NCBI GenBank assembly: GCA_019347715.1
Contig: JAHWKU010000010.1
Span: 10,805-74,804, forward strand
Length of the DNA stretch: 64,000 bases
Direction of reading: 5' to 3'
Source: Actinomycetota bacterium
GTDB taxonomy: Bacteria > Actinomycetota > CADDZG01 > JAHWKV01
Below are positions 3,277 through 29,336 of this stretch, in pieces (the stretch's first letter is position 1; every line of letters starts with the position of its first letter). The notes beneath the pieces are model-generated. The model saw only the letters and a program-made list of their open reading frames with translations, had not been told where the DNA came from and did no database searches. Both the position numbers and the translations under genes were made by a program.

Positions 3277-3284
3277 CCGGAACA

Positions 3285-4064
3285 ATGGACGATCCCAGAG
3301 ATTACATAGGCGGCCTCTACGACCGCCATTATTACGAATCGTACACAGAAGACGCCGAGAAGTACGGATACATAGAGCCATGGCTGTCGTTCTTTGGAAG
3401 TATCGCCGATTACATCGCGGAGGACATCAAGCCCGCAACCGTCATGGATGTTGGGTGCGGTTTTGGAATTCTGGTAAAGGCTCTACGGGAGCGAGACATC
3501 CAAGCCTTCGGGATCGACATCTCGGAGTATGCGATGAGCCAAGTCGATGCAGAAATCCGCGAGTACTGCCAACTTGGCTCGATAACTGATTCCCTTCCTC
3601 AGGCATACGACCTCATCGTGTGCATCGAAGTCGTTGAACATCTTCCTCCCAAGGAAGCCCTGAGCGCAGTAACGAACATTTGTAGACATACCGAAGACGT
3701 GATTTTCTCCTCTACTTCAGACGGTTTCCGAGAACCCACCCATCTGAACGTCCGGCCCATGGAGTATTGGGCAGAGCTGTTTGCGCGCAACGGGTTTTAT
3801 CGGGATCTAGACTTCGACGAGATGGTGATTGGGCCCCACGCGATGAGATTTCAAAAGATTGACCTTCCCAAGCACAAGCTGGTGGCCGCATATGAGCGAA
3901 GATTGTCCCGGCGCGAGACCGAGTCCAGGGAAGTCCGGAAGGCGTTGCTGGACATGAGGGCCCGGAATCACGCACTTCAGGAGATGCTCACCCCGCTGGA
4001 CCTTCGTGTACTCGCGCGCAGAGCCATCAGAGCAACCTGGCGGTCGATTTTTCGGCGACGCTGA
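3285..4064 (+). CDS. class I SAM-dependent methyltransferase
   Basis: 259 aa. Motif I VMDVGCGFGILVKAL and acidic motif GIDISEYAM. Sits inside the glycan gene cluster. Confidence 0.75.
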   Translation: MDDPRDYIGGLYDRHYYESYTEDAEKYGYIEPWLSFFGSIADYIAEDIKPATVMDVGCGFGILVKALRERDIQAFGIDISEYAMSQVDAEIREYCQLGSITDSLPQAYDLIVCIEVVEHLPPKEALSAVTNICRHTEDVIFSSTSDGFREPTHLNVRPMEYWAELFARNGFYRDLDFDEMVIGPHAMRFQKIDLPKHKLVAAYERRLSRRETESREVRKALLDMRARNHALQEMLTPLDLRVLARRAIRATWRSIFRRR

Positions 4065-4114
4065 ATCGTCGGTCGCACCGGTAAAGTAGCGGACCCCCCA
4101 GCTATCATGGCGGG

Positions 4115-5077: not shown

Positions 5078-6078
5078 CCACCTATCTCCTGGCATTTGCC
5101 GTCGCTCTGATATCGGCGCTGGCGGCAACTCCCGTGGCGAGGAGACTCGCCCTTCGCTTCGGAATCATGGATTCACCGTCCGACCGTAAGGTTCATCGAG
5201 ACCCGGTTCCCTATCTTGGGGGCTTGGCGATTGTCCTTGCATTTGCCGTTGCGATGGTCGGAGGCGCTCTATTACGGAACGTCTTGGCCGAATCCGTTCT
5301 GCAGATTGCAGTACTCCTCGGAGGCGGTCTCCTTCTTGCATTTATGGGTCTTTGGGATGACTTGAGAGTGGTTCCTGGTTGGATAAAGGTTCCGGTCGAG
5401 CTGGGCCTGGGTGCCCTTCTTTATCTCGCAGGAGTGAGAGCGGAGTTATTCGGGGTAATGCCCCTCGACCTTCTGATCACTATGGCCTGGGTGATCGGAG
5501 TCACCAACGCCGTGAACTACATGGACAACATGGATGGATTGACCGCTGGTGTTGTGTCGATCGCCTCGACTTACTTTGCGGTACTTGCCGCTCTATCCGG
5601 CCAACTCCTTGTCGGCAGTCTTTCCGCCGCCCTGGCAGGATGCGCTATCGGCTTCCTGTGGCATAACCGTCCGCCGGCTCGAATATTTATGGGGGATGCA
5701 GGGAGCCTCTTTCTGGGCTTCCTGCTGGCCGGCCTCGGTTTGCATCTGCGATTTGCGAACATAGCTCGGGTAACCTTTTTTGTACCCGTGGCCATCCTCG
5801 CTGTTCCGATACTCGACGCACTCATGGTGTCGGTCTCTCGAGCCATGAGGGGTCTCTCTCCCATCCGACCGGGTAAAGACCACATCTCCCACCGTCTCGT
5901 AGCCATCGGGATTCCTCCCAAGGGTGCCGTGGGTTTGATTTATTTTGCGGCCGCCGCCTGCGGGTGGATCGGAGTGGTGATTGCCTATGCCCAGCCATTG
6001 ACCGCCTACATGTTGATGGGCTGGTTGGTTATCTTGGGCGCGTTCGTTGGTCTGCTGCTGTTGAGGGTGAAGGTATGA
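5074..6078 (+). CDS. polyprenyl-phosphate N-acetylhexosamine-1-phosphate transferase (WecA/MraY family)
   Basis: 334 aa polytopic membrane protein. Signature NAVNYMDNMDGLTAGV and DAGSLFLGF. TTG start overlaps the upstream TGA (TTGA), and its own TGA overlaps the downstream ATG (ATGA). Confidence 0.9.
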   Translation: MTTYLLAFAVALISALAATPVARRLALRFGIMDSPSDRKVHRDPVPYLGGLAIVLAFAVAMVGGALLRNVLAESVLQIAVLLGGGLLLAFMGLWDDLRVVPGWIKVPVELGLGALLYLAGVRAELFGVMPLDLLITMAWVIGVTNAVNYMDNMDGLTAGVVSIASTYFAVLAALSGQLLVGSLSAALAGCAIGFLWHNRPPARIFMGDAGSLFLGFLLAGLGLHLRFANIARVTFFVPVAILAVPILDALMVSVSRAMRGLSPIRPGKDHISHRLVAIGIPPKGAVGLIYFAAAACGWIGVVIAYAQPLTAYMLMGWLVILGAFVGLLLLRVKV

Positions 6079-8177: not shown

Positions 8178-8229
8178 TGGGGCCGCTTTGGCGACGATTC
8201 CGCAACCCCCTTCCAGAGGAAAATTGAGC

Positions 8230-8619
8230 ATGCTCAGGACGGCGAGTCTTGCGATCCTCGGGGTGATGGTCGCAACTGGTGGACAGCTGTTGCTCCGCGC
8301 CGGCATGGAAAGGGTTGGCTACATTGGAGCCAGGCAAGTGGCCAAGCCTATGAAGCTTGCAATCCAGGTGGCAAGCGAGCCCCGCGTATTGATCGGCCTA
8401 GTTCTGTTCGTGATCTCTGCAGGTGTGTGGCTCATCGTCTTATCTCGGATCCCGTTGAGCCTGGCTTATCCGTTTGCGGGGCTGACCTATGTCTTCGTCA
8501 CGGTCTTCAGCAAGTTCGTCTTGAATGAGGAGGTGCCGGGGATCAGATGGCTGGGATTAGCGTTGATCGTAGGTGGCATCTTTCTCGTCGGGCGAAGCGC
8601 ACCGCCCGGACTGGAGTAA
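8230..8619 (+). CDS. ArnE/ArnF-like small EamA/SMR-family transporter (putative undecaprenyl-phosphate-sugar flippase subunit)
   Basis: ORF 8188..8619. ATG at 8230 is preceded by GAGGAAAA. Four predicted TM helices. SLAYPFAGLTYVFVTVFSKFVLNEEVPGIRWLGLALIVGGIFLV parallels the ArnE C-terminal half. Confidence 0.6.
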   Translation: MLRTASLAILGVMVATGGQLLLRAGMERVGYIGARQVAKPMKLAIQVASEPRVLIGLVLFVISAGVWLIVLSRIPLSLAYPFAGLTYVFVTVFSKFVLNEEVPGIRWLGLALIVGGIFLVGRSAPPGLE

Positions 8620-8625
8620 GCGCAG

Positions 8626-9552
8626 GTGCGCGTCCTGGTAACCGGGGCCGGAGGCTTCGTCGGCAGATACATGGTCGCAAGCCTCCTCGAGCTCGGGCAT
8701 GACGTCATCGCGGTCTCGAGGCGACAGGTCGATCTCGACTGCAAAGTGATCTCCTTCGACATGCGACAGGAATTGCATGTGAAAGAGGCTCTTGCCGAGC
8801 ATCGGCCCGAGGGCATCGTGCATCTCGCCGCCCAAGCCTCGGTGCCGGAATCGTGGAAGGATCCGAACCTCACTTACCGGATAAACATCCTCGGCGCGAG
8901 CAACGTCCTGGAGGCCCTTAGAGATCACCCGGAAACTCGCGTACTTTTGATTGGATCGGCCCAGCAGTACGGAAGACGTGATCTCGATCGTCCGATTACA
9001 GAAGATCATCCGATGGAACCTACCTCGCCGTATGCGCTGAGCAAGGTGGCGCAGGAACTAATCGGGCGATTTTATTTCTCGGAATTCGGCCGGCCGGTGG
9101 TGATGGCGAGGGCGTTCAATCATACGGGGCCGGGACAGACCGAAGAGTACGTCGTCGGATCTTTCGCCCGCCAGCTGGCCGACATCAAACTGGGGAAGGC
9201 AGAACCGGTGATAAAGGTCGGCAATCTCGATTCAGTCAGGGACTTTCTCGATGTAAGGGATGTGGTGGATGCCTATCGGCTTTTGCTCGAAAAAGGTGAT
9301 GCAGGGGAGGTCTACAACGTGTGCTCGGGCGAGGGCCGGCAAATGGGAGAGATCCTGAAGGGTTTGATCGCAGTCTCCGGCCTCGACGGCCAGGTGGAGA
9401 TCGATCAGGACGATACGACCCGCCCCGGAGACTCACCGGTGCTCGTGGGGGATAATTCCAAGGTCCGATCCGCCGTGGGATGGTCACCTCAGGTACCGTT
9501 CGAGCGATCTCTGGCGGATACCTTCCAATGGTGTTTCGAGAGTCCAGCCTAA
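8626..9552 (+). CDS. NAD(P)-dependent GDP-sugar reductase/epimerase (Rmd-like, GDP-4-keto-6-deoxy-D-mannose reductase candidate)
   Basis: 308 aa extended SDR. GTG start, [17 protein letters not shown]. Immediately upstream of gmd, the usual context for rmd. Substrate assignment is inferred from context only. Confidence 0.6.
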
Positions 9553-10595: not shown

Positions 10596-10626
10596 GGGGG
10601 GCGCGACTCACAGAATTTTCCAGGGA
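10596..10626 (+). repeat. interspersed repeat family A copy (core GGCGCGACTCACAGAATTTTCCAGG)
   Basis: Sits in the 46-bp gmd-epimerase intergenic spacer. Confidence 0.85.
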
Positions 10627-10631
10627 TTCTG

Positions 10632-11540
10632 ATGCGAGCCGTTGTCACCGGCGGGGGCGGCTTCATAGGCAGCCACCTGACCGAACGTCTTCACGCGGAG
10701 GGCCATGAGATCCTTGTGATCGACGACCTGAGCTCGGGAGAGTCGCGGGTCAGCATCATCGAGGATCTTGGGATCGAGATAATCCGGGCCGACATCCGGT
10801 CCGATCAAGCCTCGGCAGCGATCGCTTCCTTTCGGCCCGAGGCGCTGTTCCACCTGGCGGCACAGATGGACGTGAGACGTTCGGTGGACGATCCTGCATT
10901 CGACGCCGACGTGAACGTTCTCGGGACTCTTCGGATGCTATCGGCCGCGGCCGACGTGGGGGCCCGCTTCATCAACACCTCTTCCGGGGGTGCGATGTAC
11001 GGCGAGCTGCCCCCCGATAGCGACGGCTTCGACGAGGAATCGCGTCCAGCGCCGATGTCTCCATACGGCATCAGCAAGCTCGCGGGGGAGCATTACTGTC
11101 GGTTCTTCGGTGAGTTCCGGGGAATTGAGTTTGTGAGTCTCGCCCTTGCCAATGTCTACGGCCCCCGGCAGGACCCTCACGGGGAGGCAGGCGTTGTCGC
11201 GATCTTCGGACGGAAGCTCCTTGATAGTGAGCCGTGTGTGATCTACGGAGACGGCAAGCAGACTCGTGATTACGTTTTCGTCGGCGACGTCGTTGACGCG
11301 TATCTTGCCGCGCTCGACCGGGGGACAGGGGAGACGGTAAACATTGGGACCGGCGTCGAGACGAGCGTCGTCGACCTATACGCGCAGATGGCAAGCCTCA
11401 TCGGCACCGACGCCGAGCCGGTCTTCGAGCCCGAGCGGGCCGGAGAGCTTCGACGCGTCGCCCTTGACGTCTCCAGGGCCGAGCGAGTCCTCGGCTGGAC
11501 ACCGAAGACGCCCCTCGCGGAAGGGCTCCGGGCCCTGTAG
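10632..11540 (+). CDS. NAD-dependent epimerase/dehydratase (GalE-like)
   Basis: 302 aa. MRAVVTGGGGFIGSHLTERL..., YGISK (YxxxK). Extended SDR fold. Confidence 0.8.
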   Translation: MRAVVTGGGGFIGSHLTERLHAEGHEILVIDDLSSGESRVSIIEDLGIEIIRADIRSDQASAAIASFRPEALFHLAAQMDVRRSVDDPAFDADVNVLGTLRMLSAAADVGARFINTSSGGAMYGELPPDSDGFDEESRPAPMSPYGISKLAGEHYCRFFGEFRGIEFVSLALANVYGPRQDPHGEAGVVAIFGRKLLDSEPCVIYGDGKQTRDYVFVGDVVDAYLAALDRGTGETVNIGTGVETSVVDLYAQMASLIGTDAEPVFEPERAGELRRVALDVSRAERVLGWTPKTPLAEGLRAL

Positions 11541-11547
11541 ATAGCCC

Positions 11548-12513
11548 CTAGGCGGGGCGGTATTCGGCGATCATTTCTTCGACGCCGTCTTTGAGCGGCG
11601 TTGAAGGGACCCAGCCGGTGACTTCCTTGAGCCTAGTCACGTCGGCCGAGCGACGCGGGTAACCATCCGGCTTGGAGGTGTCGAACTCCAGCGCCGCCGT
11701 CGAACCCGTGAGCTGCAGGATCAACGACGCAAGTTCCTTCATCGAGATCTCATCGTCGTGACCGATGTTGATCGGCTCCGCATCGGTCGCTTTCTCTGCG
11801 ATCAGCTTCATCCCGAGGGCCCCGTCCCGCGCATGCAGAAACGCCCGGGTCTGTGTTCCCGTTCCCCAAACCACGACCGGATCTTCACCGTCGAGGACCC
11901 GCTTGATGATTGCCGGGATCACGTGGCTCGTTTTTACGTCCCAGTGGTCACGGGGGCCGTACATGTTGAAGGGACGGCAGATCGCCACGTCCATGTCGGT
12001 CTCATCATGGAAGTACTTGCCGAGGTTCTCCGCCATCCGCTTGGCCCACCCGTAGCCTTCGTTGGTCGGCTCTGGGGAGCCGCGGTCGGCCTCGGTCTCA
12101 GGAGTCGGGACCTTGGCGTCGTGAGGGTAGATGCACGCGGTGGAGACCACGAGGAAACGTCCGACGCCTTTTCTCGCCGCCGACTGCAGGACCTGCTGGC
12201 CGAGGGCCATGTTCGTCGAGAACATGTCGGCGTGATGGAACCGGTTATATTCGATGCCGGTCACCTTGGCCGCAAGGTTCAGCACGACCTCTTGTCCCTT
12301 AGTAGCCGCGTCGGCCCCTTCTGGCGTGGCGAGGTCGGAGCGCACGAGGCGGACCGAGTCCTTCACCGAGTCGATGCGTTCCATCGATCCTCTTTCGAGA
12401 TTGTCTGCGACGGTCACCTCTGCCCCATCTTCGACCAGCATCTCGGTGAGATATGAGCCGACGAAGCCGGCTCCTCCGGTCACACAAACCTTTCTTCCTT
12501 GCCAGAAACTCAT
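11548..12513 (-). CDS. fcl: GDP-L-fucose synthase (GDP-4-keto-6-deoxy-D-mannose 3,5-epimerase/4-reductase)
   Basis: 321 aa. Blocks STACIYP, EPTNEGYGWAK, FNMYGPRDHW, SHVIPAI, VVWGTGTQTRAFLHARD and KPDGYPRRSADVTRL match conserved Fcl/WcaG blocks. Confidence 0.85.
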   Translation of the reverse strand: MSFWQGRKVCVTGGAGFVGSYLTEMLVEDGAEVTVADNLERGSMERIDSVKDSVRLVRSDLATPEGADAATKGQEVVLNLAAKVTGIEYNRFHHADMFSTNMALGQQVLQSAARKGVGRFLVVSTACIYPHDAKVPTPETEADRGSPEPTNEGYGWAKRMAENLGKYFHDETDMDVAICRPFNMYGPRDHWDVKTSHVIPAIIKRVLDGEDPVVVWGTGTQTRAFLHARDGALGMKLIAEKATDAEPINIGHDDEISMKELASLILQLTGSTAALEFDTSKPDGYPRRSADVTRLKEVTGWVPSTPLKDGVEEMIAEYRPA

Positions 12514-12536
12514 TGAGGGGTCCTTTCCGGCTTCAA

Positions 12537-12567
12537 GTTTTCCAATTTCTGTGAGTCGCGCCCCCCG
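12537..12567 (-). repeat. interspersed repeat family A copy (reverse orientation)
   Basis: ttttccaatttctgtgagtcgcgcccccc, between the DUF3105 gene and fcl. Confidence 0.85.
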
Positions 12568-12570
12568 GGC

Positions 12571-13230
12571 TTAGCAGCCGAGGGGGAATTTCTCCGGCCC
12601 ATGTTCGCAGTATTCCTTGATGAATGCCCGCACAACTTTTTCGTTGTATTTCTCGCACGTCTGCATGCGGGCCCACGCAGTCATGACGAGAGGACTCTCG
12701 ATGTCGGGGTTGGCCATGAGGATCACGCCCGAGCCTTGGCCGATTGCGGGATAGGAGTCCACCAGATCTTCGAGATCCTCGAGTTCGTCGTCAGGGAGAT
12801 CGTTATGGTGGATCATGATGCCCCCGTGTTCCAAGTTGTGAACATAGAGCTCCGGTTCGATCGGTTCGTCGTGGATTCCCCATGGGGCGGTGCCGCCGCC
12901 GCGATGCTGTCCCGATGTCGGAGGATCGGAGTTGTATGGAACCCGCTCGGGCGGGGGCTGGCCATCGATGTGCACGCCCCTTTGCTCTTCGAATTCCTCA
13001 ACCTCGTCGCATCCCGCCGCCTGCAGTTCGTCGGGGCTCACTTTTCCTGCCTGACTGCGCATGAAGCCGAAGACCCCTCCGCCGACGAGGACGACGAGAA
13101 TTATTCCGATAACGATCGCTTGCCGCTTTTTCTTGGCGCGCTGGCGGCGCTTTTGCTCTTCGAGGCGCGCCTTGCGGGCCGCCTCTCGCCGTTGTGCCTT
13201 CGAAGCCTTCTTGTCAGCCAAATCGGCCAT
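12571..13230 (-). CDS. DUF3105-like membrane-anchored hypothetical protein
   Basis: 219 aa. Highly basic N-terminus (KKASKAQRREAARKARLEEQKRRQRAKKKRQ), one TM helix (IVIGIILVVLVGGGVF), then a His-rich globular domain. Confidence 0.5.
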   Translation of the reverse strand: MADLADKKASKAQRREAARKARLEEQKRRQRAKKKRQAIVIGIILVVLVGGGVFGFMRSQAGKVSPDELQAAGCDEVEEFEEQRGVHIDGQPPPERVPYNSDPPTSGQHRGGGTAPWGIHDEPIEPELYVHNLEHGGIMIHHNDLPDDELEDLEDLVDSYPAIGQGSGVILMANPDIESPLVMTAWARMQTCEKYNEKVVRAFIKEYCEHGPEKFPLGC

Positions 13231-13280
13231 AGCCTAGCGGAACGACCGCGGTAAGGGATGCCCATCGACAATGGAAAGCT

Positions 13281-13997
13281 TCAGCGAAACAGATCGGATT
13301 GCGGATCTCGCACGAGCGAGCGCGCTCTTCCTTTGCCCTCGGGATACTGCAGGCCTCTGATCAAGGCTACGGGGATCCGCTCCGATTTACCCATAACCAG
13401 CTCGGCGGCCGAAGCGATCTCATCGGCGATTGCGATCGACGTCACACTCATGATCCTGCCAAAGTGATCCGGCTTGCCCCGGTGATCATTGAGGGCGAGC
13501 ATCCCAGCCACGCCGATGGCGAAGTTCGTCTGGCCGATCCGCCAGGCACGGCCCCAGGTGTCGGTGATGACCACCGCCACGCTCGCGCCGGTCAGTCGTT
13601 TGATTTGCTTTCGCAGCCCCCGGGCGGACCTGTCCGGATCGACCGGAAGAAGGGTGACGGTTCCCTCTTCGACGTTCGAGGAATCGACACCCGCATTGGC
13701 GCAGACGAATCCATGTTTCGTTTCTGCGATCAGAAGGCCCCCGCGCTGACGGACCACTCTGGCGGTCTCGCCCATGACGATCTGCAGTTTGGCATCGTCG
13801 TCGCCGGGAGGGATTTTTGCGATCCTGCCCTCGGCCTTGGAGACGATCTTGTGGGTGACGACGAGGACGTCGCCGTCCTGCACCTCGAGCCCTGCGGCCT
13901 CGACGGCACCGGCAATGAGCTTCGCAAGGTCGTCTCCGGGCCGAACCTCGGGAATTCCCTCGACGGGGTAGATCGTCACTGCTTCCACGGCCGCCAT
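13281..13997 (-). CDS. cofE: coenzyme F420-0:L-glutamate ligase
   Basis: 238 aa. VVTHKIVSKAEGR...FVCANAGVDSSNV...VVITDTWGRAWRIGQTNFAIGVAG is typical of the CofE/FbiB N-terminal domain. Confidence 0.85.
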   Translation of the reverse strand: MAAVEAVTIYPVEGIPEVRPGDDLAKLIAGAVEAAGLEVQDGDVLVVTHKIVSKAEGRIAKIPPGDDDAKLQIVMGETARVVRQRGGLLIAETKHGFVCANAGVDSSNVEEGTVTLLPVDPDRSARGLRKQIKRLTGASVAVVITDTWGRAWRIGQTNFAIGVAGMLALNDHRGKPDHFGRIMSVTSIAIADEIASAAELVMGKSERIPVALIRGLQYPEGKGRARSLVRDPQSDLFR

Positions 13998-14055
13998 CCT
14001 ACGGCCCCCACCGGGGGCCCACCCGAGTCACCCAGCGCGCCACCGGCGACAGCGT

Positions 14056-14108
14056 CTTTTTTGTTCGCGAATGCGAACACTTTTGCACTCGGCGGCGCGA
14101 ACAAAAAA
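14056..14108 (+). repeat. hairpin repeat family B copy 1 (13-bp perfect stem TTTTTTGTTCGCG / CGCGAACAAAAAA, 26-nt loop)
   Basis: Between cofE and the DUF559 gene. The loop contains GAATGCGAAC, which can alternatively pair with GTTCGC. Confidence 0.8.
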
Positions 14109-14141
14109 ATGCGAGGGGCCATCCCCCTCAATTCGCAGATC

Positions 14142-15077
14142 TCAACGCCTCGTCCCCGTCTTACCCTTAGTCCTCGACTCGATGGCCACGCGGATCGCTT
14201 CGGCCACCGCCTTGGATTGCCGAGTCACCATGTACCACGTGAACCTCAGGACCAGCCACCCGTTCAAGATCAATACGTTCTGGCGATCGGTGTCCCTCTC
14301 GTGGGCCCGCCGGCCGAGATGGAATTCGTTGCCGTCGGCCTCGATGGCGATCCCGAGGTCTGGATACGCGAAGTCTGAAACAAAGCATTGATCGCCGATG
14401 TTGATCTTGTACTGAGGGATCGCCGGTGGGAGCCTCTCCTCTTCGAAAATCCGGTTCATCCTGCGCTCCAATTCGGTGCGGATCTTTTCTGGCAGCGACA
14501 TTCGCTGGTCGAGCAAGTTCCGGAAGGTCGTAAGCCCACGGAGGCCCTGCCGGCTTTCTCTCAGCAGCACATCCAGAAGAATTGAAGGCTTCGTCTTGCC
14601 CTTGATTAGAGCCTCATCGAGAAGCCGTTCAACCAAGCTGGGGGGCACTACGGCCCCCAGGGTCAGCAGCGTCCGTGGGATCGAGGTAACGGGGATCCCC
14701 TCGATCCGTCTCACATCGATGGGATCGATTTTCCCGTAGTGCACTTTCATCCCCTTGGGGGCCCGAACTCTCTTCCGCAAGGTGATCTCGACCACATCGG
14801 ATTTGATTGAGAGCTCGTGAACTCGGGCAGCGCATCGATGCGAAGCCACCGCCTCGTCTCCTCCCCAAGTGACCGCCCCGGCCACACGGGTGGGCCACTC
14901 CAGCCGATCTCCGTTGAAACGAAAGACGGCTGGATAGAGACCGGCCAGGTGTCCCGAATTCACCAATCGTCTGATCGTGTAGTTGGGGATTCCCAGTCGG
15001 TTCATCTGATCAGCTGAAATGACCCCGCGCCGGCGTTCTGCAAGGAGAATGGCTCTTTCGATTCGGTTCGAGTCCAT
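14142..15077 (-). CDS. DUF559 (Vsr-like endonuclease fold) protein with AbiEi-like N-terminal domain
   Basis: 311 aa. N-terminal wHTH-like region (GVISADQMNRLGIPNYTIRRLVNSGHL). C-terminal DFAYPDLGIAIEADGNEFH...DTDRQNVLILNGWLVLRF is typical of DUF559. Confidence 0.65.
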   Translation of the reverse strand: MDSNRIERAILLAERRRGVISADQMNRLGIPNYTIRRLVNSGHLAGLYPAVFRFNGDRLEWPTRVAGAVTWGGDEAVASHRCAARVHELSIKSDVVEITLRKRVRAPKGMKVHYGKIDPIDVRRIEGIPVTSIPRTLLTLGAVVPPSLVERLLDEALIKGKTKPSILLDVLLRESRQGLRGLTTFRNLLDQRMSLPEKIRTELERRMNRIFEEERLPPAIPQYKINIGDQCFVSDFAYPDLGIAIEADGNEFHLGRRAHERDTDRQNVLILNGWLVLRFTWYMVTRQSKAVAEAIRVAIESRTKGKTGTRR

Positions 15078-15144
15078 GCCTCATATCAAAGCGGGACCCT
15101 GTGACAAAAGTCGACGTTTTCGCGACCCGGGGAGGCCTTGGCAT

Positions 15145-15193
15145 TTCTGTTCGCGAATCCGAACACTTTTACGCCTGCGCTCGCCAACAAAAA
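15145..15193 (+). repeat. hairpin repeat family B copy 2 (direct orientation relative to copy 1)
   Basis: TTTCTGTTCGCGAATCCGAACACTTTTACGCCTGCGCTCGCCAACAAAAA. 27 of 28 positions are identical to copy 1 over GTTCGCGAATNCGAACACTTTT. Between the DUF559 gene and cofD. Confidence 0.8.
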
Positions 15194-15213
15194 CCTGGCG
15201 GTGCCCGGTCCGG

Positions 15214-16149
15214 CTAGGGGGCAGCGAGGATTTCTTTTGCTAGTTGGCGCGAGATGCCGGGGGTCTCCATGACGGTCTCGAGCACCATCACCCTCATCCC
15301 CAGGTCCTCGATCTTGCCGGCCTCGGGGGCGTCGCGGTAATCGACGATGAACGTCCCGCAGAAATCCTGGTACAGCCCGGCCACCGCAGACGCGCTCGCC
15401 TCGGCCCCCACGACCGGGAGGAGTTTCTCGGCCGGCCCCTTTAGTGCCGCGCCCTGGACGATGGGGGATATCGCGAACACGGCGTCGCGGCGTTCCCGCA
15501 ACGCTTCCCTTATCCCGGGGACGGCAAGGATCGGGCCTATCGAAATAACTGGGTTCGACGGACAGATGATGATCCTTTGCGCCGCCGAGATCGCGTCGAT
15601 GACTCCGGGGGCCGGAGTCGCGGTCTCCGCCCCCTCGAAGTGCACCTCTGCAACTTCTTCCGAATGACGGTAGCGAACGAAGTACTCCTGAAACTCTCTG
15701 GTTAGGCCCTCGCTCGTGACGATCCTCGTCCGGACCGGGTCGTCGGTCATTGGGATGATGCGCGCCGCCACGTCGAGGCCTCGGCGAATGCGATCGGTCA
15801 CCTCCGACAGCGGAACTCCGTCGGCCAGCCAAGTGGTGCGCGCCATGTGGGTTCCGATATCGCGGTCCTTCAGCGTGAACCATGTCTCGAGGCCGAGACC
15901 CGCCATCTGGTCGAGCGCGTGCGTCGTGTCCTGCTTTATTCCCCATCCGAGAGTGTCGTCCACGAGCCCGGCCAGCGTGTAGGTGACTATGTCGAGGTCG
16001 GGGGAGACGTGAAGGTTGTGGAAGACCGCGTCGTCGCCGGTGTTGCCGATGATCGTCACGTTCTCGGGTTCGGTGGCGCGCACCAGACCTCTAAGGAATT
16101 TGGCTGCCCCGACGCCGCCTGCCAAAGCAGTGACTCGCATGGGGGCCAT
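15214..16149 (-). CDS. cofD: 2-phospho-L-lactate transferase (LPPG:FO transferase)
   Basis: 311 aa. MRVTALAGGVGAAKFLRGL...VTIIGNTGDDAVFHNLHVSPDLDIVTYTLAG is highly characteristic of CofD/FbiA. Confidence 0.9.
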   Translation of the reverse strand: MAPMRVTALAGGVGAAKFLRGLVRATEPENVTIIGNTGDDAVFHNLHVSPDLDIVTYTLAGLVDDTLGWGIKQDTTHALDQMAGLGLETWFTLKDRDIGTHMARTTWLADGVPLSEVTDRIRRGLDVAARIIPMTDDPVRTRIVTSEGLTREFQEYFVRYRHSEEVAEVHFEGAETATPAPGVIDAISAAQRIIICPSNPVISIGPILAVPGIREALRERRDAVFAISPIVQGAALKGPAEKLLPVVGAEASASAVAGLYQDFCGTFIVDYRDAPEAGKIEDLGMRVMVLETVMETPGISRQLAKEILAAP

Positions 16150-16217
16150 GTTAGGCGAACGGTCGGCGCCGGGCTCACCTGAGGGAAATCCTGCTCGGGG
16201 CGTGTTAGCGTCGGCCC

Positions 16218-18656
16218 GTGCCGCTCACGGAGACCGAGGCAATCGCGCTCGCTGATGAAATCGCCGCGCACGGCCTGCCCGATCACGCAAGAACCCAAAG
16301 CGCCGAACTGAGAGACAGCGCCTTCGGCAACCGCATCACCTACTCACCGAAAGTCTTCATCCCGCTGACGATGCTTTGCCGCGACATCTGTCACTACTGC
16401 ACTTTTGCCAAGCCGCCTTCCAAGGGGCAGCGGGCGTACATGTCGATCGACGAAATGATCGAGATCGCACGCGCCGGTGCGGCGGCCGGTTGCAAGGAAG
16501 CGCTTTTCACTTTGGGGGACAAGCCCGAGCTTCGATACCGGGCCGCCCGCGAAGAGCTCGACCGGTTGGGATTCGAATCAACGATCGCGTATCTCGCCCA
16601 CGCGGCCAAGGCGGTGTTGGATGAGACCGGGCTGCTCCCGCATCTCAATCCGGGGATCCTGTCTCCCGACGACTTCGAGCTTCTGCGCGACGTCGCTCCT
16701 TCGATGGGGATCATGATCGAATCAACCTCGGACCGGCTGCTGCAAAAGGGAATGGCCCACCACGGAAGTCCTGACAAGGTTCCGGCGCTTCGGCTTGCAA
16801 CACTCGAGCTGGCCGGGCGTTTCCAGGTCCCATTCACGACTGGGATCCTGATCGGCATCGGAGAGAACTGGCGCGAACGTGCGGAGACCTTGCTGGCGAT
16901 TGCGGAGTCGCATCGTCGCAACGGTCATGTCCAAGAGGTGATCGTGCAGAACTTCCGGGCAAAGCACGACACCTTGATGAGCGATCATCCCGAGCCGGAC
17001 GACGACGAGATGCTGGCTTCGATCGCGCTGGCGCGCCTCATCCTCCCAGAGGACATCAGCGTTCAGGCCCCGCCGAACCTGGCCTCATCGGACGAGAATC
17101 TCGTTTCCTACATCGAGCACGGAATAAACGATTGGGGCGGCGTCTCTCCGGTAACGATCGATCACGTAAACCCGGAGGCCCCCTGGCCCGACCTCGACCG
17201 GCTCGAAGCGGTGACTGCGAGGGCCGGCGGCGTGTTGGTGCCGCGCCTTACCGTCTATCCGCGCTACGCCTTCGACGATGAGTGGGTTTCGAAGAAAGTG
17301 CTTCCGGCGGTCCTAGCCGCAGCCGACGGCGAGGGCCTCGCATTCGAAGGCCCCTGGTACTCCGGCGCCCCCGCCCCCTCGCGGGGGCGCGACTCACAGA
17401 ATTTTCCAGGAAACCCCCCCGGGGGGCGCGACTCACAGGATTTTCCAGGGGCCCGCACGCGCGGCCCCGGCGTCGCGCGCGCCCCCTCGCGGCCCCGGCC
17501 CCGTGCCGATTTCGAAACCGCCATCGCTAAGGCTGGCGGCAGTGAACTTAACGAAGACGAAATCACCGTCCTTCTGACCGCGCGGGGCCCCGAGTACGAG
17601 CGTCTCATCGAAGCCGCCGACGCGCTCAGACAAAAAGTCAGCGGCGATACGGTCACCTTCGTCGTCAATCGCAATATCAACTACACCAACATGTGCTACT
17701 TCCGATGCGGATTCTGCGCGTTCAGCAAGGGCCCGAAGTCCTTGAACCTGCGCGGCGATCCATATCTGATCTCTTTCGACGAGATCGCGGAGCGCACCAT
17801 CGAGGCCCGCGAGCGCGGCGCTACAGAAGTTTGCCTTCAGGGTGGTATCCATCCGTCGTTCACCGGCGACTACTACGTGAAGGTCGTCCGTTCGATCAAG
17901 CAGGCGGTCCCCGACATCCACGTTCACGCCTTTAGTCCCCTGGAGATCTGGCAAGGCGCCGAGACGAAGGGCGTTACGATCCGCGATTTGCTTTGGGAGC
18001 TGAAGGATGAGGGGCTCGGCACGCTTCCCGGGACAGCCGCAGAGATTCTCGACGACGAGGTGCGGGCGATCATCTGTCCCGACAAGATCAATACGGCTCA
18101 GTGGAGCGAGGTTGCCCGTACTGCGCACTCACTCGGTCTGAAGATGTCCACGACGATGATGTTCGGACATGCCGACACATACCGGTCGTGGGCCCGTCAC
18201 CTGATCGTTCTTCGAGATATTCAGAAGGACAGCGGCGGATTCACAGAGTTCGTGCCGCTTCCATTCGTCCACATGGCTGCGCCGATCTTTCTGAAAGGGA
18301 AAGCAAGGCGGGGGCCCACGTTTGCCGAGACGATCAAGGTGCACGCGGTGGCGCGCCTTGCGCTGGATCCGTGGATCACGAACATACAGGCCTCGTGGGT
18401 GAAGCTCGGGGTCGAGGGTTCGCAGGTCGCACTGAATGCCGGCGCCAACGACCTCGGCGGGACACTCATGAACGAGACGATCTCGCGCGCCGCTGGGGCC
18501 TCGCACGGCCAGGAGATCACGGCGGACGAGATGAAGCGCATCATCTCCGACGCCGGCCGCCCCTGGGCCCAGCGCTCCACCACCTACGTACCCTTGGAGG
18601 CGCGACTCACAGAATCTTCCAGGCCCCCGACTGCGTCGGGGGCCTGTCGCGCGTAA
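16218..18656 (+). CDS. fbiC: FO synthase, bifunctional CofG/CofH (radical SAM)
   Basis: 812 aa. Two radical-SAM cysteine triads, CRDICHYCTF and CYFRCGFCAF. The linker and C-terminal tail contain copies of interspersed repeat family A. Stop TAA at 18654-18656 lies inside the repeat. Confidence 0.92.
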   Translation: MPLTETEAIALADEIAAHGLPDHARTQSAELRDSAFGNRITYSPKVFIPLTMLCRDICHYCTFAKPPSKGQRAYMSIDEMIEIARAGAAAGCKEALFTLGDKPELRYRAAREELDRLGFESTIAYLAHAAKAVLDETGLLPHLNPGILSPDDFELLRDVAPSMGIMIESTSDRLLQKGMAHHGSPDKVPALRLATLELAGRFQVPFTTGILIGIGENWRERAETLLAIAESHRRNGHVQEVIVQNFRAKHDTLMSDHPEPDDDEMLASIALARLILPEDISVQAPPNLASSDENLVSYIEHGINDWGGVSPVTIDHVNPEAPWPDLDRLEAVTARAGGVLVPRLTVYPRYAFDDEWVSKKVLPAVLAAADGEGLAFEGPWYSGAPAPSRGRDSQNFPGNPPGGRDSQDFPGARTRGPGVARAPSRPRPRADFETAIAKAGGSELNEDEITVLLTARGPEYERLIEAADALRQKVSGDTVTFVVNRNINYTNMCYFRCGFCAFSKGPKSLNLRGDPYLISFDEIAERTIEARERGATEVCLQGGIHPSFTGDYYVKVVRSIKQAVPDIHVHAFSPLEIWQGAETKGVTIRDLLWELKDEGLGTLPGTAAEILDDEVRAIICPDKINTAQWSEVARTAHSLGLKMSTTMMFGHADTYRSWARHLIVLRDIQKDSGGFTEFVPLPFVHMAAPIFLKGKARRGPTFAETIKVHAVARLALDPWITNIQASWVKLGVEGSQVALNAGANDLGGTLMNETISRAAGASHGQEITADEMKRIISDAGRPWAQRSTTYVPLEARLTESSRPPTASGACRA
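17384..17411 (+). repeat. interspersed repeat family A copy, in-frame inside fbiC linker
   Basis: gggggcgcgactcacagaattttccagg encodes GRDSQNFPG. Confidence 0.85.
17422..17451 (+). repeat. interspersed repeat family A copy, in-frame inside fbiC linker (tandem to previous)
   Basis: ggggggcgcgactcacaggattttccaggg encodes GGRDSQDFPG. Confidence 0.85.
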
Positions 18657-18687
18657 TCATCTGGAAAAATCTGTGAGTCGCGCCTCC
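18597..18687. repeat. complete palindromic element of repeat family A (about 91 bp; 27-bp terminal inverted repeats plus internal hairpin)
   Basis: GGAGGCGCGACTCACAGAATCTTCCAG-gcccccgactgcgtcgggggc-ctgtcgcgcgtaatcat-CTGGAAAAATCTGTGAGTCGCGCCTCC. Contains the fbiC stop codon. Confidence 0.85.
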
Positions 18688-18782
18688 TAATCGCGCTTAG
18701 CCCTACCGACAGTGGGTAGACACGTTTAGTAGGCGAGGGCACAGTTAGGCCGGGGGACAAAGAAAGGCGAAATACGGATTCA

Positions 18783-26324: not shown

Positions 26325-28277
26325 TTGGGCCCAGTGAACGAAAAGATCTTCGATGGCCTAAACGACGAGCAGCGCTCCGCGGTCGAGGCCACCCGCGGCC
26401 CCCTGTGCATCCTCGCGGGGGCCGGCTCGGGTAAGACGACGACTATCACCCGTCGCATCGCCAACCAGGTCGCGTCGGGAGCGTTCGGGGCCCGTCAGAT
26501 CCTTGCCGTCACCTTCACCGAGAAGGCCGCCGGCGAGATGGCCCGCCGTCTCGAGAACCTCGGAATCCCAGGGGTGCGAGCGCGCACCTTCCACGCCGAG
26601 GCCCTCGCGCAGTACCGGCGTTTCTCCAGGGACGAGAGCGAGATCGTCGCCGCCAAGGCGCCGTTGCTGACATCGCTAGTGCGGTCGCTGCCGCCGCCGC
26701 ATCGCTTCACGGCGCTTCGCGACGTCGCCACCGAGATCGAGTGGGCCAAGAACCGCAGGATCACACCGCAGGATTACGAAGAGAACGTCGGCGACCGAAA
26801 GCCGCCGGTCCCGGCGGAGATGATGGCGAGCATCTACTCGTCTTACGAGCGACGAAAGTCGCGGGCGAAGCTGATCGACTTCGAGGATCTGCTCGGCCAC
26901 ACGATAGAGGTGCTTGCAGCCAGCGATGACGCGCTGCAGCAAGTGCACGACAACTATCAGGCTTTTACCGTTGACGAATACCAGGACGTGAACCTCCTTC
27001 AGGAGACGCTTCTTCGCACATGGCTCGGCGATCGAAACGAGGTCTGCGTTGTCGGCGACGACTATCAATCCATCTTCGGCTTCACTGGTGCGACGCCGGA
27101 ATATCTCCTGCAATTCCCGGATCGATTCGCCGGTTGCAATGTCGTCCGCCTGACTGCCAATTACCGATCGACTCCGCCGATCCTCGATGTCGCCAACCGA
27201 CTGGCGCCTCGATTGGGTGGATCAAAAAAGATGCTTACGCCGGTGGCCAAGCAGGGCCCACCTCCAGACTTTCGATCGTTCACAACCGGCGATGATGAAG
27301 TCGCGTGGATCGTCTCGGAAGCAAACCGGATCCATGCCGAGGGAACCGCATGGGAAGAGATGGCCGTGCTCTATCGCATCAACGCAAGGTCGGAGCCGTT
27401 CGAAGAAGCGTTTTCGGTCAACCAGATTCCGTTTCAGGTGCGTGACTCGATCTTTCTGCGCCGGCCCGCGGCCCGCTCGGTGTTGTCGAAATTAAGAAGA
27501 GCATCCGGGCCGCCGGCGGAAGTGGTGGCGAAGATCGCGGACGATCTCGGCTATCGCGAGGACTCGGAGGAGACCGACGGCGAGGAGGCCACGCGTCAGG
27601 CGGATCTCGGGCGGCTCGTTCGGCTCGCGCAGGAGTATCCGGGTGACGACGGGACAGCCGGCTTCGTCGCCGACCTCGAAGCGCGCTTTCGTCCCGATGC
27701 CGAGGGCCGCGGGATCAATCTCCTCACTTATCACCGGGCGAAGGGCCTCGAATTCGAAGCGGTATTTCTTCCGAGACTCGAGGACCGGGAGCTTCCATTC
27801 GCGATGGCAACGGACGAGCGGCTTACAGAGGAACGGCGTCTCTTCTACGTCGGGATCACTAGAGCCAAGAAGCGGCTGATGATCTCATGGGCTTTGTTCC
27901 GACCGGATGAGCGGGCCAAGAACCGTCGCCCGTCGCCATTTCTGGAAGAGATCCTGCCGGCGTCCTCGAAGGCCGCGTCGAAAGCAGCGCCGGCCCAGCC
28001 GGCTCCCAGCCGCGAACGCAGCCGCCGTGAGGTCGCGCCCGAACATCGTGATCTCTTCGAAGCCCTCAAAGAATGGAGATCGCGCCACGCGCGCGAGGCC
28101 GGCGTCCCGGCATACATCGTTTTCAACGACGAGACCCTCGCCCGAATATCCGAGATGAGGCCGACGTCGTCCATCGCGCTGCTGAAAGTCCCAGGCATCG
28201 GCCCGTCGAAAAGCTCCAGCTACGGCGAACACGTCCTAGCCCTAGTGGCCGCCCACAGCCGTATGAACCGAGCGTAA
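26325..28277 (+). CDS. UvrD/PcrA/Rep-family ATP-dependent DNA helicase with C-terminal HRDC-like domain
   Basis: 650 aa. Walker A AGAGSGKTTTITRRIA. Helicase motifs DEYQDVN, TYHRAKGLEF, FYVGITRAK. C-terminal RDLFEALKEWRSRHAREAGVPAYIVFNDETLARISEMRPTS..LLKVPGIGP resembles an HRDC/RQC-type tail. Confidence 0.85.
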   Translation: MGPVNEKIFDGLNDEQRSAVEATRGPLCILAGAGSGKTTTITRRIANQVASGAFGARQILAVTFTEKAAGEMARRLENLGIPGVRARTFHAEALAQYRRFSRDESEIVAAKAPLLTSLVRSLPPPHRFTALRDVATEIEWAKNRRITPQDYEENVGDRKPPVPAEMMASIYSSYERRKSRAKLIDFEDLLGHTIEVLAASDDALQQVHDNYQAFTVDEYQDVNLLQETLLRTWLGDRNEVCVVGDDYQSIFGFTGATPEYLLQFPDRFAGCNVVRLTANYRSTPPILDVANRLAPRLGGSKKMLTPVAKQGPPPDFRSFTTGDDEVAWIVSEANRIHAEGTAWEEMAVLYRINARSEPFEEAFSVNQIPFQVRDSIFLRRPAARSVLSKLRRASGPPAEVVAKIADDLGYREDSEETDGEEATRQADLGRLVRLAQEYPGDDGTAGFVADLEARFRPDAEGRGINLLTYHRAKGLEFEAVFLPRLEDRELPFAMATDERLTEERRLFYVGITRAKKRLMISWALFRPDERAKNRRPSPFLEEILPASSKAASKAAPAQPAPSRERSRREVAPEHRDLFEALKEWRSRHAREAGVPAYIVFNDETLARISEMRPTSSIALLKVPGIGPSKSSSYGEHVLALVAAHSRMNRA

Positions 28278-28289
28278 GATGCCACTTGA

Positions 28290-28543
28290 TGAAGACTTCT
28301 GGCTGGGCCGATGTCGCCACAAAAAGCGACCTGCATCGCCTGGCTGAACGGGTGGACGCGCGCTTCGAGTTGCTCGATGCTCGCTTCGATGCCGTCGATG
28401 CTCGATTTGAGACTACCAAGCAAGAGCTCATCGCCATTTTCCGGGGCGAGCTAATCTCGCAGACTCGAACCATCATCTTTGCCCTCGTGGGAACCGTAAT
28501 CAGTCTGGGCGCCCTGGCGCTCGGAGTAAGTGGCACTTTTTAA
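28290..28543 (+). CDS. small coiled-coil protein with C-terminal TM anchor (paralog 2)
   Basis: ATG at 28290 ([15 protein letters not shown]...[50 protein letters not shown]) is paralogous to 25860..26270. The track ORF 28073..28543 uses an upstream start that overlaps the helicase. Confidence 0.55.
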
Positions 28544-28690
28544 CAACCCCGATTGTTCGGTACGAGAATTCGCTTAACTACGCGAGCGGTCACACTCAGC
28601 CACCGTATGGGTAGTTAGGCGCGACCGCCTGTGCCAAACGGCCCACGCGCCCGCCCGTGCCAACCAAAACGGGGCCCCCTAGGGCCCCGT

Positions 28691-28717
28691 CTGGAAAATC
28701 CTGTGAGTCGCGCCTCC
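28691..28717 (-). repeat. interspersed repeat family A copy (reverse orientation) at left edge of AT-richer island
   Basis: ctggaaaatcctgtgagtcgcgcctcc, preceded by the hairpin ggggccccctagggcccc. Confidence 0.85.
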
Positions 28718-28724: not shown

Positions 28725-29336
28725 TTAGCACGGCCCCTGGCCTAGTTGGAACTTGCCGTTCCATTTCTCGTAGATGAATGCCGTCGCCTCGGTGATCTTG
28801 GCGTCGAGATTCGAAGTCGTCACGTAGCGAGCCGTCTTGCCCGAAGCGTTGCTGAGAGGAACATCCTCCTCGGCCCCGTTGTCCCAAGTGACGTGGATCC
28901 TCGATGGAGCGGCCGACGGACCGCCGTCTATCTTGTTGATGATGAATTGCCACTGGGTGCTGTCGCAGTCGTATCCGACGAGCTTGGCCCGGATCGTCTT
29001 GCCTCCGATGACCTCGAAGTCGACCGCGTCGGTCGCAAGGACCTGTCCGTGTCGCAACAGACGAGCCTCGACCTTGTAACCGCCGCTCTTCGCGGTCTCG
29101 GGTGACCAGTCAAGGCTCCAATTCCCCGACTCGCCTTCTGCGGGAGCCGCTACCTCGGTCCAGCCGAAGACGCGTCCGTCCGGCCCCGTCAGCTGCACCT
29201 CGACCAGCCATGGCGCCGCCGTCAAGGTGACTTCCTGCTGGGTCGTGTCCGAGTTGCCGTCGCTGTCGATGACAGTGAGAGCAATGGTGAACGTCCTGTA
29301 GAACGCTCGGATAATCTCGAAGTTCCAACCGTCCAC
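28725..29336 (-). CDS. hypothetical protein (beta-rich, no recognised family)
   Basis: 203-aa ORF only. Composition AT-richer than flanking genes. No motif recognised. Confidence 0.35.
   Translation of the reverse strand: MDGWNFEIIRAFYRTFTIALTVIDSDGNSDTTQQEVTLTAAPWLVEVQLTGPDGRVFGWTEVAAPAEGESGNWSLDWSPETAKSGGYKVEARLLRHGQVLATDAVDFEVIGGKTIRAKLVGYDCDSTQWQFIINKIDGGPSAAPSRIHVTWDNGAEEDVPLSNASGKTARYVTTSNLDAKITEATAFIYEKWNGKFQLGQGPC

Follow-up and report, generated by a model that had tools for sequence, protein, structure and literature searches.

The window analyzed here is a 64,000-nt stretch of a contig from an actinomycetotal bacterium. Between 10.6 and 28.7 kb it carries nine copies of a 27-28-nt repeat unit, GGRGGCGCGACTCACAGRWTYTTCCAG(G). 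The surrounding genes include some whose products were confirmed with Pfam as GDP-mannose dehydratase, epimerases, DUF3105, CofE, CofD, FbiC and a class A penicillin-binding protein (PBP). The copies and the genes that host or adjoin them are as follows.

10597..10624, plus strand: solo unit GGGGGCGCGACTCACAGAATTTTCCAGG in the spacer between the GDP-mannose dehydratase (gmd) and epimerase genes
12538..12565, minus strand: solo unit with a diverged 3′ end (…CACAGAAATTGGAAAA), 5 nt past the stop of the DUF3105 gene
16218..18656, plus strand: fbiC, bifunctional CofG/CofH FO synthase of 812 aa, host of three translated units
17383..17410, plus strand: FbiC linker unit 1, in the CofG-CofH linker, read as GRDSQNFPG
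17422..17449, plus strand: FbiC linker unit 2, 11 nt past unit 1, read as GRDSQDFPG
18596..18646, plus strand: 51-nt module before the fbiC stop, made of a unit (18596-18623), the GC hairpin CCCCCGACTGCGTCGGGGG and CCTG
18660..18687, minus strand: inverted unit of the ATTTTT subtype, 3-4 nt past the fbiC stop
18783..21002, plus strand: class A PBP gene, between fbiC and a DUF5667 gene
21006..21056, plus strand: second 51-nt module (unit and GC hairpin), 3 nt past the PBP stop
22743..25211, plus strand: gene for a coiled-coil protein of 822 aa, host of one translated unit
24829..24856, plus strand: unit with a diverged 3′ end in the tail of the coiled-coil protein, read as GRRDSQDLED
28690..28717, minus strand: solo unit, 7 nt past the stop of a minus-strand gene of 203 aa (28725-29336)

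The unit is built of an invariant GGCGCGACTCACAG followed by a variable hexamer and CCAG. The first-pass annotation had counted nine core copies in both orientations within 18 kb, and that count holds. The 25-mer at three or fewer mismatches retrieves seven copies from the window against 0.00 expected (100 shuffles), and two further copies, at 12538-12565 (minus) and 24829-24856 (plus), keep the invariant GGCGCGACTCACAG and diverge at the 3′ end. The plus strand has six copies and the minus strand three; searching the whole window with an nhmmer profile of the unit added none. Conservation drops to background outside the 27-28 nt, with both edges sharp, and no homology was found between the flanks of different copies except in orthologs and in the 51-nt module. 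A GC hairpin follows the unit at only 4-5 of about 19 copies and is therefore no part of it. Direct repeats of at least 5 nt, such as the 6-nt GGATTC around 10597..10624, flank 6 of 20 copies as against 8.6% of random positions; they may not be clean target-site duplications, because the lengths that they enclose vary from 25 to 35 nt. The whole comparison rests on about 20 copies, from the window and from metagenome loci, at about 14 loci.

Five of the nine copies in the window are intergenic. Two of these fill short spacers between co-directional genes, as had been described: the gmd-epimerase spacer of 46 nt (dehydratase stop at 10585, epimerase start at 10632) and the DUF3105-fcl spacer of 57 nt, in which the unit lies upstream of the start of an fcl-like epimerase gene (12513) and is sense to both neighbors. 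On the minus strand, a terminator-like hairpin, CGGGGCCCTAGGGGGCCCCG followed by TTTT, stands directly 3′ of the unit at 28690..28717.

The other four copies are translated, three in FbiC and one in the coiled-coil protein. Stop codons interrupt none of the three sense frames of the unit, an insertion contributes just 11-13 codons, and in-frame copies survive only in disordered protein segments. The two tandem copies proposed for the CofG-CofH linker are confirmed by translation, which shows SRGRDSQNFPGNPPGGRDSQDFPG, and so is the copy in the coiled-coil gene, where the open reading frame reads EGRRDSQDLED. The latter occupies a disordered C-terminal tail, and an ortholog in a relative (L009) has no copy. 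The fourth translated copy belongs to the 51-nt module at 18596..18646, which forms an in-frame insertion immediately ahead of the fbiC stop and encodes EARLTESSRPPTASGAC, so that the protein ends in EARLTESSRPPTASGACRA*. The palindromic sequence around it had been credited with both the last residues of FbiC and the stop codon; the residues stand, but the context GCG TAA TC at the stop is common to the window and a relative with 90% protein identity (L008), in which the C-terminus is 33 nt shorter, and the stop codon is probably ancestral rather than supplied by the element. Among 120 FbiC homologs the linker motif RDSQ[ND]F occurs in three only, the three closest; the linker copy is absent from 116 homologs at 71% identity or less, and the C-terminal tail is unique to the window among the homologs compared. 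These sequences are therefore insertions and not ancestral protein sequence, and the alignment agrees with the earlier suggestion that the linker copies and the tail are lineage-specific, neither being conserved in distant homologs. On the evidence of such alignments, the coding copies are lineage-specific insertions read in-frame.

Relatives represented by soil-metagenome contigs have the unit too. Of seven metagenome contigs that carry it, four show positions unrelated to the window: in front of a gene for a solute-binding protein, behind a Zn-ribbon gene, behind a peptidase M16 gene and, in L001, at a locus that is uncharacterised. The earlier view of an interspersed rather than a local repeat is borne out by this recurrence. 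In syntenic relatives some copies are shared with the window and others are specific to it, and at orthologous sites the filled state exceeds the empty one by 33-40 nt. For instance, the DUF3105-fcl spacer, which includes the unit in the window, measures 57 nt there, as against 15 nt in L009, where the unit is missing, and the orthologous copy in a further relative (L002) has a 2-nt deletion. The cofD-cofE junction is found in four different states in four relatives. In FbiC, a single linker copy orthologous to 17422..17449 is present in relatives with 90% and 79% protein identity (L008 and L009) and decayed in one with 78% (L010), and the unit at 17383..17410 is an extra copy relative to L008 and L009. 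The gmd-junction copy has decayed in L009 to 23 of 28 matches and is read in-frame there as a dehydratase tail, RDSKDFSGN*. Aligned in this way, filled against empty orthologous sites, the loci show the units to be insertions, some of them old, shared and in part decayed, others specific to one genome. The age structure that these alignments suggest for the copies fits neutral DNA.

The 91-bp stretch at 18597-18687 had been presented as a complete element with terminal inverted repeats. In it the inverted unit at 18660..18687, which is flanked by a duplicated TAATC, pairs with the unit at 18596-18623; the 27-nt arms are 93% complementary, and the RNA folds at −64.7 kcal/mol (z = −9.4). The complementary arms and the hairpin of that description are thus real features of the sequence, and the folding model shows that an inverted pair of units gives a predicted hairpin of great stability. 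The 91-bp palindrome is not, however, the basic form of the repeat, which is the unstructured solo unit of 28 nt. A single unit folds at 0 to −1 kcal/mol, a fold as good or better is reached by 92-200 of 200 shuffles, and inverted pairs occur at only 2 of about 14 loci, solo units being far more numerous. Because its arms belong to different subtypes (hexamer AATCTT versus ATTTTT), the interior of the only other inverted pair, in L002, is unrelated and longer, the edges of the unit are sharp and most copies are solo, the 91-bp stretch is probably not a master form; by its sequence it looks like two units of different subtype with a GC hairpin. The half element reported at 21006 was found as stated, with 21006-21056 being 98% identical to 18596-18646. 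The coding sequence for the FbiC end peptide does recur there, as claimed, but it lies past the PBP stop and out of frame and is therefore in no called protein.

The family appears to be undescribed, in line with its first billing as uncharacterised: Rfam, the literature, plasmids, phages and species genomes all yielded no match. With Rfam 15 there were no matches at the gathering score in the whole window and none at E ≤ 1 between 10 and 29.5 kb, and a literature search with the 13-nt core on both strands found no paper containing the sequence. A strict 23-nt pattern had no match in one representative genome each of 185,579 species. A scan of the same collection based on FbiC gave 80 loci, all from Actinomycetota MAGs and at 70% identity or less, and nhmmer detected no unit in their 1.3 Mb; the lineage, or at least the repeat, is absent from this collection. 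BLAST of a 106-nt element against plasmids and phages returned only chance-level matches (E ≥ 0.08), retrieval of relatives' contigs through UvrD gave three loci with no units, and the window and the loci showed no transposase. No autonomous element sharing the ends of the unit was seen there or among the plasmids and phages. Among viral contigs one match was set aside as due to chance, lying in a low-GC context with neither the GGRGG prefix nor the CCAG suffix. Resemblance to promoters (sigma-70, ECF, sigma-54), dif/Xer sites, CRISPR repeats, Ter sites and tRNA ends was rejected by inspection only.

Several known systems share features with the unit. Mycobacterial interspersed repetitive units (MIRUs), reportedly described by Supply et al. 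in 1997, were the parallel drawn at first pass, and it holds for intercistronic sense placement. Beyond an actinobacterial host, spacers within operons and orientation with the flanking genes, the likeness extends to filled and empty orthologous sites, short flanking direct repeats and neighboring reading frames that can run through the repeat, the gmd tail of L009 ending in TAG right before an ATG. The parallel fails in size, arrays and the small reading frame. Here copies are 28 nt, mostly solo and also found inside genes, and the sole tandem pair (17383, 17422) has an unrelated 11-nt spacer; MIRUs measure 40-100 bp and typically form head-to-tail arrays of variable number (PMC3184786). No small open reading frame of the MIRU type overlapping the stop and start of its neighbors was found in the window, and the gmd-epimerase spacer has no ATG, GTG or TTG upstream of the epimerase start.

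Another family is the MITEs, among them the Correia element, RUP and ERIC, whose copies span about 50-500 bp, bear inverted repeats at both termini and have a conserved interior (PMC10969869). The present repeats are likewise non-coding, non-autonomous, interspersed and lineage-restricted, their inverted arms can form long hairpins, they can fuse in-frame to gene 3′ ends, and the short direct repeats at some copies may be a further likeness. However, most copies consist of one 28-nt arm whose inner edge is sharp and are smaller than any accepted MITE, the interiors of the two pairs are unrelated and no parental insertion sequence is known for the unit. REP sequences, of 21-65 nt (PMC3184786), fall in a similar size class, occur as singlets and inverted doublets, are genus- or species-specific and are common between co-transcribed genes and past stop codons. 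They differ in being self-folding imperfect palindromes and extragenic, whereas the 28-nt unit has no structure of its own and four of the nine window copies are translated. REPIN sequences are mobilized by RAYT transposases; no RAYT (TnpA-REP) gene was found among the window open reading frames scanned. The Rickettsia palindromic elements (RPE), said to have been reported by Ogata et al. in 2000, are selfish repeats lying in-frame in housekeeping protein genes at tolerated positions, as is also seen here. They are about 100-150 bp, palindromic and alphaproteobacterial (PMC10969869), whereas this unit has 28 nt, is non-palindromic, adds 11-13 codons and is intergenic in most copies. Being 28 nt long, non-palindromic and sharply bounded, it thus lies outside the definitions of MITE, REP, MIRU and RPE.

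We lean, with modest confidence, toward a family of lineage-specific, very small, non-autonomous repeats derived from insertions, selfish or near-neutral DNA of the MITE, REP or RPE kind and probably harmless. Placement of the units would depend on a trans-acting enzyme whose gene lies elsewhere in the genome, each unit being a terminal binding site for the enzyme. Insertion, or survival thereafter, would favor the first few nucleotides past a stop codon and the sense orientation, and new units would land beside resident ones, giving rise to tandem and inverted pairs. The repeats may then have become substrates for rearrangement, as in the insertion of the PBP gene, and effects on mRNA, with hairpins acting as 3′ stabilizers or insulators, would be secondary.

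The placement of solo units could also be the work of selection. They are sense to the adjacent gene at about 10 independent loci and not at 1, and they lie 0-11 nt past stop codons, a proximity (p ~0.006, hand-computed Fisher combination) that persists in long spacers, at 3 nt into 199 nt (21006) and 7 nt into 447 nt (28717). Simple random transposition does not predict such a sense bias and stop-codon proximity, a point against the mobile-repeat reading. A cis-element selected by the host, acting on the transcript just past the stop as a single-stranded RNA (or DNA) site bound by a lineage-specific protein or RNase, might serve mRNA 3′ processing or stability, ribosome release or re-initiation, or cistron insulation, and might have been spread or kept by selection. 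The unit is less structured than its shuffles and has a Shine-Dalgarno-like GGAGG at its 5′ end, as could suit such a role, and the window and L009 share 26 of 28 positions of the FbiC linker copy as against about 73% of its flanks, a difference that could reflect selection or gene conversion. We nevertheless consider a selected cis-element rather unlikely. The linker copy of L010, the gmd copy of L009 and the fcl copy of L002 show decay about as fast as that of their flanks, a function past the stop makes no sense at the four loci inside coding sequence, and no similar family exists in Rfam. One junction is, moreover, filled, empty or differently filled in close relatives, and the unit is therefore dispensable. 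It is more doubtful still that the unstructured 27-28-nt unit itself inserts, sense and within a few nucleotides of stops, in a manner coupled to the termination of transcription or translation, or that it represents a new class of post-stop RNA signal bound by a lineage-specific protein.

The PBP gene raises another possibility. It is specific to the window: in L008 and L009, fbiC and the DUF5667 gene have no PBP gene between them. The insertion is bracketed by the two 98%-identical 51-nt modules. A search for homologs that might reveal its native locus found no close one, the best match having 52% identity, compared with 90%, 79% and 78% for the FbiC relatives, and the GC3 of the gene is below that of its neighbors. 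The units could accordingly be read as recombination sites, similar to integron attC or Xer sites, that bound exchangeable modules such as the PBP gene, and like attC sites they lie at the 3′ ends of open reading frames in sense orientation. This is improbable: the window open reading frames scanned include no integrase or recombinase, the unit is no imperfect palindrome and does not have the Xer 11-6-11 layout, most units flank syntenic housekeeping genes (gmd, fcl, cofD, cofE, fbiC) and not cassettes, and the resident fbiC stop context is kept between the left module and the PBP gene.

Composition also divides the window. Its 46 kb of foreign-looking glycan-island DNA has no units, while native DNA has about one per 2 kb; GC3 is 0.47-0.54 in the unit-free island DNA versus 0.72-0.80 in the core. 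Absence from the islands and from distant relatives is expected for a repeat accumulating inside one lineage. The same distribution, together with coding copies in tolerated frames and an inverted pair at a gene end, might point to a motif resembling a DNA uptake signal, accumulated through biased competence uptake and recombination. Haemophilus uptake signal sequences have a GC-rich core and then an A/T tract, a layout that the unit may be said to echo. However, copies add about 33-40 nt relative to empty sites and were not built by point mutation, the 27 conserved positions are far above known uptake cores, orientation follows transcription and no competence genes are evident in the window, all of which makes an uptake signal very improbable. 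Ancestral coding sequence, a purely local duplication or an assembly artefact, to which the clustering of all nine window copies within 18 kb and the shared frame of three coding copies (RDSQ) might point, are already refuted by the presence of the unit in independent NCBI, ENA and JGI assemblies at orthologous and non-orthologous loci, by the 3 of 120 FbiC homologs with RDSQ[ND]F, by the window-unique tail and by the five intergenic copies of nine.

Short interspersed repeats are common and their in-frame fusion to genes is documented for such elements (PMC3184786, PMC10969869), and another Actinomycetota family is therefore only moderately interesting in itself. What adds to the interest is the small, non-palindromic and sharply bounded module, which fits none of the families named above, and the placement of the units, the sense bias and stop-hugging of solo copies pointing either to targeted insertion or to a role in the transcript. 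Were the 27-28-nt unit itself found to insert, it would be the smallest mobile repeat described in a prokaryote. The unit could be used as a specific marker of this uncultured lineage of soil Actinomycetota. Lastly, the filled, empty and decayed sites across 78-90% protein identity form a natural time series, which bears on how selfish DNA joins an essential enzyme (FbiC) and on how repeats accompany gene gain (the PBP gene).

An alignment of 18 copies sets the bounds of the 27-28-nt unit: conservation jumps at GGRGG and drops sharply past CCAG(G). The core GGCGCGACTCACAG is nearly invariant, and the six bases 3′ of it vary, defining the subtypes AATTTT, GATTTT, AATCTT, ATTTTT and others. The nine copies in both orientations within 18 kb reported in the first-pass annotation were found again. 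Seven match its 25-mer at three mismatches or fewer (0.00 expected from shuffles), and two more with the invariant core, at 12538-12565 (-) and 24829-24856 (+), emerge when the 3′ half is relaxed. Six lie on the (+) and three on the (-) strand, all within 10.6-28.7 kb, and a search of the 64-kb window with an nhmmer profile made from 20 copies adds none. Copy flanks are unrelated, except in orthologues and in two 51-nt modules of unit, GC hairpin and CCTG (18596-18646 and 21006-21056; 98% identity).

By itself the unit has no self-structure (0 to -1 kcal/mol, not better than its own shuffles), and a GC hairpin stands immediately 3′ of it in four to five copies only. The stretch 18597-18687 at the end of fbiC (16218-18656, +) pairs two 27-nt arms with 93% complementarity; its folding energy is -64.7 kcal/mol as RNA (z = -9.4) and -39.3 kcal/mol as DNA. 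It had been called a complete 91-bp element. Because its two arms are different subtypes, and because the sole other inverted pair (in L002, a related metagenome contig) encloses a longer, unrelated interior, we read it instead as two units plus a hairpin, with the 28-nt unit as the putative module. Close pairs number three: direct in the FbiC linker, inverted at the fbiC end and inverted in L002.

The unit was compared with MIRU, MITE, REP and RPE families as defined in PMC3184786 and PMC10969869. The suggested likeness to MIRUs holds for intercistronic, co-oriented placement but not for tandem minisatellite structure, which the unit lacks. Non-autonomy and hairpin-forming pairs are shared with MITEs, whereas their paired ends and conserved interior are both missing. 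REPs are of the same size class but palindromic, while the unit is non-palindromic and often genic; RPEs likewise insert in-frame, but the unit is five times smaller. It had been described as unrelated to anything recognised, and indeed neither an Rfam family nor, in a literature search, a published sequence matches it.

NCBI protein MBW3589249.1, encoded on an 81,466-bp contig of an Actinobacteria/Actinomycetota bacterium MAG, has the same sequence as the window FbiC. The nearest counterparts of this FbiC in a collection of 185,579 species genomes reach at most 70% identity, all in Actinomycetota MAGs; closer relatives come from metagenome contigs only. A strict 23-nt unit pattern has zero matches in that collection and matches seven JGI metagenome contigs. 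The loci compared are as follows.

Metagenome loci compared with the window
L008: FbiC 90% identical to that of the window
L009: FbiC 79% identical; a 19.8-kb contig in synteny with window 8-25 kb
L010: FbiC 78% identical
L002 and L006: 87-94% DNA identity to the window; two of the seven JGI contigs, overlapping window synteny
L007: unit 2 nt past the stop of a peptidase M16 gene, itself 3′ of pnp
L005: unit 11 nt past the stop of a Zn-ribbon gene
L003: unit upstream of a solute-binding-protein gene
L001: unit at a further locus

The last four, also among the seven, are unrelated to the window, so the recurrence elsewhere on which the claim of an interspersed family had hung is observed. The nhmmer profile found zero copies in 1.3 Mb surrounding fbiC in 80 more distant genomes, and three UvrD neighbourhoods of relatives (71-93% protein identity) likewise contain zero, so the family is restricted to a narrow lineage. 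Two isolated core matches in unrelated contexts, without full unit edges, were set aside. One, on the remaining JGI contig of the seven (L004, 447-472), falls within a 4-alpha-glucanotransferase gene of another metagenome and is probably chance; the other, on a low-GC IMG/VR viral contig (L091, 2394-2412), was judged chance.

Pfam bears out the assigned gene identities, namely GDP-mannose dehydratase, two epimerases, DUF3105, CofE, CofD, FbiC, class A PBP, DUF5667 protein, ECF sigma factor, coiled-coil protein and UvrD. By the longest-ORF calls, the ECF sigma-factor gene (22240-22980, -) and the coiled-coil gene (22743-25211, +), on opposite strands, overlap by ~240 nt. The true start of the coiled-coil gene is probably downstream of the GTG at 22743, since the L009 orthologue has 794 aa and the window protein 822 aa. 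The in-frame copies described earlier are seen in translation: the FbiC linker contains SRGRDSQNFPGNPPGGRDSQDFPG, the FbiC C-terminus reads …LEARLTESSRPPTASGACRA to its stop, and the coiled-coil tail is EGRRDSQDLED. The unit is open in all three sense frames; RDS(Q/K) is used by three window coding loci and the L009 gmd tail, and ARLTE at the FbiC C-terminus.

Comparison with orthologues, as the first-pass annotation had proposed, shows that these coding copies did not originate as ancestral protein sequence. Of 120 FbiC homologues, only three contain the linker motif RDSQ[ND]F, those of the window and its 90% and 79% relatives. At the same position in L010 the motif has decayed to GGAAACAGGACCTCGAGAGTTTCC, which translates as WKQDLESF, and the second linker copy of the window is extra relative to the other carriers. 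The C-terminal tail is confined to the window; L008 FbiC ends in …YALIEDREEVPA and a stop, and ~51 nt in the window replaces 18 nt just 5′ of a conserved GCG TAA TC. The DUF3105-to-fcl spacer is 15 nt in L009 vs 57 nt, unit included, in the window, and is similarly filled in L002. The gmd-to-epimerase unit is common to window and L009, where it has drifted to 23/28 matches and supplies the dehydratase tail, RDSKDFSGN before the stop. The cofD-to-cofE spacer is an insertion hotspot, with four states among four relatives: a plain 78-nt spacer in L009, an inverted unit pair of ~150 nt in L002 (1500-1680), a single inverted unit in L006 (990-1058), and, in the window (13998-15213) and L010, a DUF559/AbiEi-like gene flanked by a repeat other than the unit.

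This second family, unrelated to the unit, spans ~50-66 nt with the core TTTCTGTTCGCGAATCCGAACACTTTTACGCC…GCGCGAACAAAAA.

Copies of the second repeat family
14055-14120 (+), one of two direct copies bracketing the inserted DUF559/MTES_1575 + AbiEi_4 ORF (14142-15077, -) between cofE and cofD, an ORF that this junction has in L010 and lacks in L009 and L002
15144-15206 (+), the other bracketing copy
22147-22212 (-), between the DUF5667 and ECF sigma-factor genes

Specific to the window is a class A PBP gene (18783-21002, +; segment 18587-21057) inserted between fbiC and the DUF5667 gene, a position it does not occupy in L008 or L009. It is bracketed by the two near-identical 51-nt modules, its GC3 is 0.65 vs 0.72-0.80 in neighbours, and it lacks a close homologue, the best among 5.8 billion proteins being only 52% identical. 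Its annotated start may differ, as the matches did not include the exact NCBI protein. Elsewhere, a 167-nt direct repeat (55216-55382 and 56637-56803; 89% identical) comprises the 3′ end of a carbamoyltransferase gene and a copy following a methyltransferase ORF (55417-56547). Lying between the two, this ORF is bracketed by a duplicated gene end, which its insertion is likely to have left behind.

The unit-bearing 18 kb has a GC3 of 0.72-0.80. The flanking 46 kb (GC3 0.47-0.54; glycosyltransferase, Wzy, NeuB and ABC-transporter clusters) contains zero units; units are missing from foreign-composition DNA. The low-GC surface-glycan clusters, at 1-9500 and 29900-62000, surround the F420/housekeeping core and encode GT2 and GT4 glycosyltransferases, two Wzy-like ligases, Wzm/Wzt ABC transporter components, two NeuB-type nonulosonic-acid synthases, CMP-sugar cytidylyltransferases, a carbamoyltransferase and two DUF4012 proteins. 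Both are probably horizontally acquired islands.

Orientation, stop-codon position and direct repeats, which with reading frames, composition and PBP bracketing go beyond the first-pass annotation, were counted on ~20 copies and are small-sample results. At ~10 independent loci a solo unit points the same way as its neighbouring or host gene, vs one where it does not. Intergenic solo units lie 0-11 nt past the upstream stop codon even in long spacers (p ~0.006, hand-computed Fisher combination over six loci), as at 21006 (3 nt into 199 nt) and 28717 (7 nt into 447 nt); the 203-aa ORF upstream of the latter is a real gene, given its GC3 of 0.79. Flanking direct repeats of at least 5 nt accompany 6/20 copies vs 8.6% of random sites and enclose 25 to 35 nt. 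GGATTC flanks the copy at 10597, and a duplicated TAATC, containing the fbiC stop codon, flanks the unit at 18660-18687.

Sense orientation and stop-codon proximity are the main loose ends of a selfish-DNA reading, and they keep alive the alternative of a functional post-stop element acting on the transcript. Two simpler accounts are possible: an antisense unit brings in an anti-Shine-Dalgarno CCUCC, which could mask ribosome-binding sites close by, and insertion may favour the A/T-containing stop context in a GC-rich genome. No placing enzyme, clean target-site duplication or master element was found in the window and compared loci; in its bipartite, asymmetric conservation the unit looks like a transposase end-binding site, and a transposase may have placed the copies. 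The best-supported explanation is that the mini-repeats derive from insertions, form a lineage-specific family and behave as selfish or near-neutral DNA. The copies are dispersed and add length relative to empty sites; some orthologous ones decay and others are recent, and within coding sequence they survive only where the segment is disordered and the frame open.
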